IMG/VR virus record: IMGVR_UViG_2713896799_000009
Coordinates: 1 to 37,500 of that record
Source of the DNA: a virus
Lineage: Duplodnaviria > Heunggongvirae > Uroviricota > Caudoviricetes
Reading direction: 5' to 3' (one strand)
DNA length: 37,500 bases
Below are positions 22,900 to 23,209 of the stretch, one piece after another. The position numbers and the translations under genes were made by a program. The notes beneath the pieces are model-generated. The model saw nothing but the letters and a program-made list of their open reading frames with translations, did no database searches and was not told the DNA's origin. The first letter of the stretch is position 1. Each line of letters opens with the position of its first letter.

Positions 22900-22974
22900 T
22901 GGAGCGGGCAGCGGGAATCGAACCCGCATCATCAGCTTGGAAGGCTGAGGTAATAGCCATTATACGATGCCCGC
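22900..22974 (-). tRNA. tRNA-Gly (anticodon TCC)
   Basis: Hand-folded cloverleaf: acceptor GCGGGCA/TGCCCGC, T-arm GCGGG-TTCGATT-CCCGC, anticodon loop CTTCCAA, encoded CCA. Confidence 0.7.
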
Positions 22975-22977
22975 ATA

Positions 22978-23053
22978 TGGTGCCGACTGCCGGAATCGAA
23001 CTGGTGACCTACTGATTACAAGTCAGTTGCTCTACCTACTGAGCTAAGTCGGC
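22978..23053 (-). tRNA. tRNA-Thr-like (anticodon TGT), possibly degenerate
   Basis: Acceptor GCCGACT/AGTCGGC, anticodon loop CTTGTAA, T-loop TTCGATT, encoded CCA; the T-stem has two A-C mismatches. Confidence 0.5.
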
Positions 23054-23055
23054 AC

Positions 23056-23132
23056 TGGACCGCCACCGGGGACTCGAACCTCGCACACTCAACTTAAAGG
23101 GTTGACGCTCTTTCCTGATGAGCTAGTGGCGG
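23056..23132 (-). tRNA. tRNA-like element (anticodon-position TTT, Lys-like), possibly a pseudo-tRNA
   Basis: Acceptor CCGCCAC/GTGGCGG, T-loop TTCGAGT, encoded CCA; but C at position 33 and a mismatch in the T-stem. Confidence 0.35.
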
Positions 23133-23133
23133 T

Positions 23134-23209
23134 TGGTGGCCCTTGCTGGATTTGAACCAGCGACCTGGCGATTATGAGTCGCTCGCTCTCACCACTGAGC
23201 TAAAGGGCC
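23134..23209 (-). tRNA. ileZ: tRNA-Ile2 (CAT anticodon, ileX/ileZ-like; tools often label it tRNA-Met)
   Basis: GGCCCTTTAGCTCAGTGGTGAGAGC...CTCATAA...GGTTCAAATCCAGCAAGGGCCACCA is near-identical to E. coli tRNA-Ile2. Confidence 0.8.

Follow-up and report, generated by a model that had tools for sequence, protein, structure and literature searches.

Transfer RNA genes in the late region of lambdoid phages are ordinary and widely annotated. The closest described arrangement is the ileZ-argN-argO cassette that Shiga toxin (Stx) phages carry in the slot between the antiterminator gene Q and the late genes, as in Stx2a_F349 (AP012530), phage 2851, and 933W-type phages (tRNA names as in GenBank annotation). 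Here we describe a four-gene relative of that cassette at positions 22900–23209 of a 37,500-nt stretch of DNA (the window), positions 1 to 37,500 of IMG/VR record IMGVR_UViG_2713896799_000009. The host element is an ompW-integrating lambdoid prophage of Escherichia coli; its terminase is of the P27 type, its head genes are of the HK97 type, and its holin is of the P21 type. What we describe is a variant form of the known ileZ-argN-argO cassette; it is common in E. coli and already annotated. We read it as a self-promoted, codon-supplying tRNA cassette of chimeric origin that lies in the late-operon leader between Q and the lysis genes, and we give this reading an even chance. Its most interesting part is the second gene, a tRNA-Lys(UUU) that, as far as its sequence tells, may be a working decoder, a counter-defense RNA, or a relic.

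ARAGORN called four tRNA genes and no others in the window. All lie on the minus strand, and each of them scored above the gathering score of 29 for the Rfam tRNA family RF00005. In the order of transcription, these are tRNA-Met/Ile2 (cat; 23134–23209, 72.5 bits), tRNA-Lys (ttt; 23056–23132, 44.4 bits), tRNA-Thr (tgt; 22978–23053, 67.0 bits), and tRNA-Gly (tcc; 22900–22974, 64.9 bits). With Rfam E-values of 4e-14 to 2e-6, the four calls are not chance. All four genes encode CCA, the spacers between them measure just 1, 2, and 3 nt, and RefSeq annotates the four as tRNA-Ile, -Lys, -Thr, and -Gly. A sequence-only reading of the window had described four tightly packed tRNA-like genes with these anticodons, and ARAGORN and Rfam bear it out down to the outer coordinates; the minus strand, an A27–C43 pair in Ile2, and a U13–U22 pair in Gly were absent from it. 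The same reading had asked whether tRNA callers would accept all four genes and assign them other anticodons: ARAGORN, Rfam, and RefSeq do call all four as tRNAs, with anticodons no different from those first read. Measured against a 7/4/5/5-bp cloverleaf with 21 stem pairs, the Ile2, Lys, and Gly genes each have 20 standard pairs and the Thr gene of the window has 19. U33 is kept in Ile2, Thr, and Gly, and the Lys gene has C33. Minimum-free-energy folding of the individual tRNAs missed the cloverleaf, also in the functional host gene thrU and in ileZ; a method that fails on functional host thrU says nothing about decay.

Compared gene by gene with known cassettes, the arrangement appears to be a chimera. 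Its 5′ half, comprising the promoter, Ile2, and the argN-scaffold tRNA, matches the ileZ-argN module of the Stx phages: the slot from Q to the late genes is the same, the promoter is of the same form (TTGCAA-17-TATTAT-CCTxCGCxC), the first gene is identical to ileZ of Stx2a phage F349 (76/76), and the same 1-nt spacing leads to a second gene on the same scaffold (65/77), with UUU and C33 here in place of the UCG and U33 of argN. In the 3′ half, argO (UCU), the third gene of the Stx-phage cassette, appears to have been replaced by near-exact copies of host thrU and glyT. The downstream cargo differs as well, being a P21-type lysis cassette here and stx there. An intermediate form, Ile2-Lys-argO, is found in PPompW prophages, with a Lys gene that has lost 1 nt from its D-stem. 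The sequence-only reading had set this cluster apart from the ileZ-argN-argO set of Stx phages, a distinction that falls away: the Ile2 gene is none other than ileZ, the TTT element is homologous to argN, and the promoter and the slot are the same.

Of 5426 complete E. coli genomes, 573 (∼10%) contain the whole 411-nt cassette region, within prophages at many chromosomal positions, and three records of the GenBank phage collection (606R7, 689R5, and PhiR47_1) have the cassette, including its Lys allele. A scan of IMG/VR with the T-arm of the scaffold yielded 123 usable loci, the window and three separately retrieved loci included, and the allele counts given below refer to this sample. Gene order was Ile-Lys-Thr-Gly in 94 of these loci, Ile-Lys-Arg(UCU) in 13, and Ile-Arg(UCG)-Arg(UCU) in 7, and a few were truncated. 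Across 89 four-gene loci, nucleotide diversity (π) was 0.005–0.016 in the tRNAs compared with 0.22–0.25 in the flanking 160 nt, and it changes abruptly at the promoter on one side and at the CCA of Gly on the other; the value for the Lys gene, 0.016, is 15-fold below that of the flanks. Divergence between tRNAs reaches a plateau of ∼1% once the flanks differ by >5% and is still there when they differ by >20%. The majority allele makes up 91% of Ile2 copies (108/119), 58% of Lys, 67% of Thr, and 65% of Gly, so that by this measure the Lys gene does not look obviously more decayed than the canonical Gly. Our own reading of these patterns is that the cassette is kept in the long term and that damage is tolerated in individual, often defective, prophages.

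The Ile2 gene, the best conserved of the four, differs from K-12 ileX at 8 positions. Its CAU anticodon is presumably modified to lysidine and reads AUA. The gene keeps the C4–G69 and C5–G68 pairs, which separate Ile2 from Met under the TilS identity rule, and A27–C43 is its sole nonstandard stem pair. The assignment of the CAT gene to tRNA-Ile2 in the sequence-only reading stands, given its identity to Stx-phage ileZ and its RefSeq label of tRNA-Ile. A damaged allele, T54G, occurs in the population.

The Thr gene is identical to K-12 thrU at 75 of 76 positions. The single difference, U65C, gives an A49–C65 mismatch next to A52–C62, leaving three standard pairs in the T-stem and lowering the Rfam score by 6.8 bits (67.0 in the window vs. 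73.8 for K-12 thrU). The A–C mismatches noticed earlier in the T-stems of the Thr and TTT elements, and the C33 of the latter, are real, but A52–C62 is already present in functional host thrU. Among ∼100 prophage copies, the U65C allele was found only in the window and one near-identical genome (L001), and it is a rare private mutation that is probably mildly damaging. Since most Thr copies (69 of 103) match functional host thrU exactly, only the window allele, and not the gene as such, looks impaired. The Thr gene resembles argO only at positions that tRNAs share in general, and damaged Thr alleles in the population include C56U and changes at G57.

The Gly gene is identical to K-12 glyT at all 75 positions and scores 64.9 bits as glyT does; its nonstandard U13–U22 pair is native to the host gene. 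Its damaged alleles in the population include G18A and U11C. Both thrU and glyT are single-copy genes in the host, where they lie in the chromosomal thrU-tyrU-glyT-thrT operon. The mature Thr and Gly sequences of the prophage are those of this operon, A52–C62 and U13–U22 included, to which the window adds U65C. Homology ends at the mature tRNA ends: the prophage has no tyrU, no 116-nt tyrU-glyT spacer, and no thrT, and its Thr and Gly genes are 3 nt apart.

A promoter scan identified a candidate σ70-type promoter at 23219–23247 on the minus strand, with TTGCAA and TATTAT hexamers separated by 17 nt. A GC-rich 9-nt discriminator, CCTGCGCCC, follows TATTAT and ends at G1 of Ile2, and a sequence of the type TTGCAA-17 nt-TATTAT-CCTGCGCCC is found directly 5′ of ileZ/Ile2 in the window, Stx2a_F349, and PPompW alike. 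Both hexamers and the 17-nt spacing are kept across the 89 prophage loci, and the sequence of the spacer diverges. The predicted leader of the cassette transcript is 2–3 nt long, and a GC-rich discriminator is typical of stable-RNA promoters; we infer that TTGCAA-17-TATTAT functions as the promoter of the cassette.

The cassette is co-oriented with the lysis genes and directly upstream of them, as the sequence-only reading had placed it. On the same minus strand follow the P21-type holin gene essD (22392–22607), ydfR (22037–22387), lysozyme (21440–21973), and Rz (20982–21458), and the Q antiterminator gene (25002–25361) lies upstream. Between Q and the tRNA promoter, we noted by eye a candidate terminator hairpin (CCGC-AUCAA-GCGG followed by U7; 23330–23350, minus strand), which is homologous to a hairpin just downstream of Q in PPompW and would stop transcription coming from the direction of Q. 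A terminator scan did not call this hairpin, its stem having fewer than 5 pairs. Downstream, a structured 292-nt spacer runs from tRNA-Gly to the start of the holin gene (22608–22899, minus strand). It folds at −96 kcal/mol compared with −72 ± 4.5 for shuffled sequences (z = −5.3; 0/200 shuffles as good), holds long hairpins with 11- to 15-bp inverted repeats, and includes a terminator-like CCGC-UUUU-GCGG followed by U6 at 22673–22690. No Rfam family matched the spacer at its gathering score. The spacer may insulate the lysis genes from the tRNA promoter.

Under the supply reading, RNA polymerase would start at TTGCAA-17-TATTAT, 2–3 nt before Ile2, and during lytic growth, Q-modified polymerase would also read in from upstream. 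RNase P would then cut the tetracistronic precursor at each 5′ end, and the 1- to 3-nt spacers would be trimmed to the encoded CCA. In the lysogen, the structured spacer and the U-run hairpin would keep promoter-initiated transcripts off the holin gene. With these products, more tRNA would be available to decode AUA, ACA, and GGA, codons that E. coli reads with the minor tRNA-Ile2 (AUA) and from the single genes thrU (ACA) and glyT (GGA).

Codon usage in the long open reading frames (ORFs) of the window, compared per 1000 codons with a 50-kb sample of K-12, fits this classical idea where the Ile2, Thr(UGU), and Gly(UCC) genes are concerned. ATA is used 7.6 times in the window vs. 3.1 in K-12 (p = 1e-7), ACA 14.7 vs. 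5.0 (p = 2e-10), and GGA 14.2 vs. 7.9 (p = 3e-9), enrichments of 1.8- to 2.9-fold; for all Lys codons together, the values are 50.8 and 39.0.

The Lys gene stands on the argN scaffold. It shares with argN the C1–G72 acceptor stem, U73, the D-arm, the T-arm, and the A51–C63 mismatch, and sequence comparison shows no relation to host lysT. Seven of the 12 differences from argN fall inside the 17-nt anticodon arm, which reads UCAGC-CUUCGAA-GCUGG in argN (UCG, U33) and UCAAC-CCUUUAA-GUUGA here (UUU, C33). The gene is thus best described as an argN-family tRNA whose anticodon arm appears to have been remodeled from UCG to UUU, in effect a natural Arg-to-Lys anticodon switch. Pairing is preserved at every stem difference between the two genes, of which we count five (among them G30–C40 to A30–U40, U27–G43 to U27–A43, U7–G66 to C7–G66, and G3–U70 to G3–C70), although this is a weak argument, most of the changes being transitions into or out of G–U pairs. 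An apparent strand swap of the anticodon stem of lysT (GUUGA/UCAAU) relative to that of the prophage gene (UCAAC/GUUGA) was considered and dropped as coincidence, inasmuch as the inverted host arm does not yield the observed loop.

In its present form, the gene has 20 of 21 standard stem pairs, A51–C63 being the exception, and keeps U8, A14, G18G19, T54-T55-C56, and A58; it also carries C16, and its anticodon loop is C32-C33-U34-U35-U36-A37-A38. LysRS recognizes tRNA-Lys mainly through the anticodon U34-U35-U36, with A73 as the discriminator, and C35 is the main determinant for ArgRS. The Lys gene has the UUU anticodon, carries U73 in place of the A73 of host tRNA-Lys, and lacks C35. It also has 36-UAA-38, a strict determinant of the t6A modification (PMC13276492). 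We judge it at about even odds that the gene product is charged with lysine and decodes AAA and AAG. The window allele is the commonest Lys allele, and its 44.4 bits compare with 43.0 for Stx-phage argN. Of the earlier suspicion that the two middle elements are degenerate, little is left for Thr, with A52–C62 native to thrU and U65C costing ∼7 bits; the TTT element, scored above argN and annotated by RefSeq as tRNA-Lys, is borderline and not clearly decaying.

C33 and the UUU anticodon are invariant in 115 Lys copies, in which position 32 varies, but this invariance is not significant (∼15 mutational events over ∼55 observable sites; by our own estimate, P ∼0.3). In IMG/VR, a scan for U33 forms of the scaffold, whatever the anticodon, returned six argN(UCG) loci only; none combined U33 with a UUU anticodon. 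Counted in any context, the Lys gene is present in 798 of 5426 complete E. coli genomes (∼15%, roughly 1 in 7). When species-representative genomes were scanned with the Lys anticodon arm, the tRNA was found only in E. coli and Shigella flexneri; the eight other matches were chance hits without a tRNA, and the scan thus yielded no more distant homologues to compare.

Several observations weigh against codon supply by a cassette maintained for that purpose. The first group concerns constraint and expression. Between prophages with near-identical flanks, the tRNAs differ by 0.34% and the flanks by 0.22%, which indicates weak short-term constraint, and none of the four genes is free of alleles with broken stems or with changes at U8, T54, C56, G57, or G18. 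Host gene conversion could maintain the identity of Thr and Gly, and the low long-term divergence of the tRNAs could mean that the cassette passed recently from one phage background to another, and not that it was under selection. The promoter and the terminators are consensus-level inferences. AGA (7.0 in the window vs. 2.4 in K-12) and AGG (5.2 vs. 1.2) are equally enriched even though argO has been lost, and codon bias is therefore no general predictor of the tRNA set. Supply also fits Lys(UUU) poorly: a single K-12 locus already holds at least five tRNA-Lys(UUU) genes, and AAA is the Lys codon preferred by the host.

The remaining points in this direction come from the Lys gene itself. U33 is described as “conserved in bacterial tRNAs” (PMC13276492), a near-universal rule that C33 breaks. 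The Rfam score of the gene is below that of every functional benchmark checked (the lowest being T4 tRNA-Arg, at 48.8 bits). In a covariation test with 13 distinct scaffold alleles, 94% of cells were paired and 161 of 500 shuffles reached the observed value, a test without power because divergence is too small. The tRNA callers of two phage depositors skipped the intact Lys allele. Only 279 of the 798 E. coli genomes with the gene have an allele at least 99% identical to that of the window, and 519 fall below 99%. RefSeq labels the 100% and 98.7% alleles tRNA-Lys and leaves unannotated the 97.4% allele, which has the 1-nt D-stem deletion of PPompW prophages, and the 96.1% allele, a haplotype with U8C.

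Many of the same facts bear on whether the TTT element and the window Thr allele are decaying genes that do not decode and persist only through their place between functional neighbors in a cassette that travels as one unit, an explanation we regard as unlikely, though by no means negligible. C33, U73 for A73, and the A51–C63 mismatch would all suit a relic, as would the Lys score, the lowest of the tRNAs compared except argN, and the disagreement of callers over an intact allele. Damage to the Lys gene is tolerated: U8C is present in 17 copies and the 1-nt D-stem deletion in 14–15, the PPompW allele with this deletion falls below the Rfam threshold, and the sampled alleles from the 519 more divergent genomes go unannotated by RefSeq. 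The homologue in Yersinia phage YeP1, described below, is a depositors’ pseudogene, and U65C with its three remaining standard T-stem pairs would be in keeping with decay of the window Thr. Yet the window Lys allele is the commonest one, its stems are intact save for the family-typical A51–C63, and its CCA is encoded; its differences from argN all preserve pairing, and UUU and C33 do not vary where position 32 does, in a sample too small for significance. The majority-allele share of the gene is close to that of Gly, its diversity is as far below the flanks as noted above, the allele is present in the three phage-collection records, and most Thr copies are identical to a functional host gene. 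The proposal of the sequence-only reading that the cluster may mix functional and decaying tRNAs is partly right: damaged alleles of these genes do circulate in the population, and Thr is not a degenerate element.

The poor fit of Lys(UUU) to codon supply is also one ground for a counter-defense role, which we consider quite unlikely. Here, the Lys(UUU) on the argN scaffold would act as a nuclease-resistant replacement or decoy for host tRNA-Lys against the PARIS nuclease AriB or PrrC-type anticodon nucleases and so sustain late translation, and the extra Thr(UGU) would raise the copy number of the second prime target of AriB. Cleavage by AriB is abolished by U39A and impaired by A41C and U16C, and phage T5 escapes with self-encoded variants of the Lys, Thr, and Asn tRNAs (PMC12409363; PMC11464382). 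The Lys gene has U36-A-A-G39-U40-U41 and C16 where lysT has U39-C40-A41 and U16, so that all three mapped AriB determinants differ, along with most of the tRNA body. However, differences from lysT at these positions would be expected in any tRNA that did not share its ancestry, and the match to “resistance” is therefore no evidence of selection. The two middle genes of the cassette correspond to the two prime targets of AriB, but the Thr gene keeps the full AriB site (UAAUCA with U16), is host-identical in the 69 of 103 copies already mentioned, and has positions 39–41 untouched in every prophage variant. For PrrC170, rescue was obtained with a phage tRNA-Lys and not with extra E. coli tRNA-Lys (PMC11555353); by analogy, cleavage by the yeast γ-toxin is unaffected by U33C (PMC2275089), which speaks against protection by C33. 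Damaged Lys alleles are common, the triggering of PARIS or PrrC by lambdoid phages is an assumption, and resistance would be useless unless the tRNA were charged and able to decode.

A further point in favor of counter-defense is that the anticodon arm changes fast on this scaffold, as seen in the concentration of argN differences there and in a third arm outside E. coli. In Yersinia phage YeP1 (MK733259), a scaffold homologue at 2725–2802 on the minus strand occupies the slot between Q and the holin gene and has an identical C1–G72 acceptor stem. It has G51–U63 for A51–C63 and an aberrant anticodon arm (A33, UUG, C37), scores below the Rfam threshold, and is flanked by two further tRNA genes, one for Ile2 and one for a Gly tRNA resembling glyT. 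Three versions of the arm are thus at hand, UCG/U33 in Stx phages, UUU/C33 in ∼15% of complete E. coli genomes, and A33 in the Yersinia phage, and the acceptor and T arms of the scaffold appear conserved across genera where the anticodon arm is not. A broader proposal, and one we rate as improbable, is that the argN scaffold, with its C1–G72, U73, and a 51–63 pair of wobble geometry, would be a platform that receives a new anticodon arm time and again, the UUU/C33 version being a temperate-phage counter-defense RNA (a resistant lysine decoder or a nondecoding decoy) that arose by an Arg-to-Lys anticodon switch.

Temperate mycobacteriophages that carry tRNA-Lys-TTT provide a precedent for tRNA-dependent lysogeny (PMC10865867), in which the tRNAs carried by a phage replace a host tRNA gene destroyed by its integration. 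That thrU and glyT are single-copy in the host would be in line with such a role, but it is extremely improbable for this cassette. In genomes with a 99.9% identical integrase/excisionase module, that module adjoins ompW, and a sister prophage with an identical cassette adjoins potC. Neither type of junction has a tRNA gene, and cassette prophages sit at many chromosomal positions; the ompW and potC integration sites, free of tRNA genes, rule this explanation out. The sister prophage, L140 (NZ_CP035884.1, 4506000–4555999), has an identical tRNA region that includes the rare Thr U65C. It is defective, with frameshifts in cro and the major capsid gene and an IS66 in a head-tail gene; the window does not have this IS66 and has a different, ompW-type integrase module.

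The tail genes of the window offer another possible use for a phage Lys(UUU), namely, to modulate the −1 frameshift that makes the tail-assembly chaperone fusion. A G-like ORF (11518–11904, minus strand) ends in GTT AAA AAA AAG TAG, and a T-like ORF (11216–11506) is open in the −1 frame, which indicates a putative programmed −1 frameshift on a dnaX-type heptamer, A AAA AAG, at 11518–11530 on the minus strand. This heptamer is read only by tRNA-Lys(UUU), and the same heptamer reportedly drives frameshifting in dnaX through weak pairing of tRNA-Lys(UUU) with AAG (Tsuchihashi and Brown 1992). The lambda-type slippery site GGGAAAG, which would involve both Gly(UCC) and Lys(UUU), is absent from this junction. 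The support for such tuning is at the level of coincidence, host tRNA-Lys is enough for such sites in phages without tRNAs, and prophages of the PPompW type have a damaged Lys allele; we rate it as very improbable.

Other features of the prophage lie around the cassette. Between Q and the tRNAs, two plus-strand ORFs run antisense to the late operon. The 303-aa product of the first (23441–24352) matches the PADLOC defense candidate PDC-S42 (3e-53), the NCBIfam family “LAPAL motif-containing putative phage structural protein” (1e-66), and PHROG 3243 (unknown function), and it has no Pfam match and no relative of solved structure; the sole match of the 128-aa product of the second (24602–24988) is PHROG 26468. 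The family matches of these two ORFs show no visible tie to tRNA biology. Just past the lysis cassette, on the opposite (plus) strand, is a gene for a serum-survival lipoprotein of the iss/bor type (20609–20950), as annotated by RefSeq in a near-identical region. The window also encodes a sok antitoxin RNA (27370–27544, minus strand; Rfam, 110 bits), which adjoins hokD, and the small RNA DicF (32912–32963, plus strand; Rfam, 76.7 bits), and these two are hallmarks of the early regions of Qin-like lambdoid prophages.

The comparisons made here lay out how such a cassette is put together: an ileZ-argN module shared with Stx phages and grafted host thrU and glyT, behind one conserved promoter of the stable-RNA type and between mosaic flanks. 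Within it, an Arg UCG appears to have been switched to a Lys UUU on a single scaffold, with a product that violates the U33 rule. The Lys gene, present in about one in seven complete E. coli genomes and treated differently by different callers, affects automated tRNA counts and isotype tables; since its annotation by RefSeq depends on the allele, automated E. coli tRNA counts differ through this one gene. The link to defense comes from the pairing of two prime PARIS nuclease targets in the middle of the cassette, one of which, the Lys gene, has none of the mapped cleavage determinants. If a counter-defense role were true, it would extend the notion of phage tRNAs as antidefense factors from large virulent phages such as T5 and T4 to common lambdoid prophages, and lysogens would constitutively carry an antidote to tRNA-targeting systems of their own or of their neighbors.

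Of the tRNA sets known from virulent phages, that of T4 was the one to which the sequence-only reading had likened the Gly and Thr genes. Both clusters are tightly packed (T4 spacers are 1–10 nt), and both have Gly(UCC), Thr(UGU), and Ile(CAU). T4 was rejected as the source of the two genes: its Gly and Thr differ from those of the window at 12 of 75 and ∼14 of 76 columns, and the host genes glyT and thrU differ at 0 and 1. The apparent likeness to T4 arises because the Gly and Thr tRNAs of T4 resemble those of E. coli. Like the T5 tRNA-Lys, of the anti-PARIS type, the Lys gene of the window is a phage-borne tRNA gene with the targeted anticodon UUU and with different bases at the AriB determinants (positions 39–41 and C16). 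The present cassette differs in that it belongs to a temperate lambdoid phage and has a single Lys gene, set on an Arg-tRNA scaffold; it has a C33 that is unreported for T5, and its Thr(UGU) keeps the AriB cleavage site.

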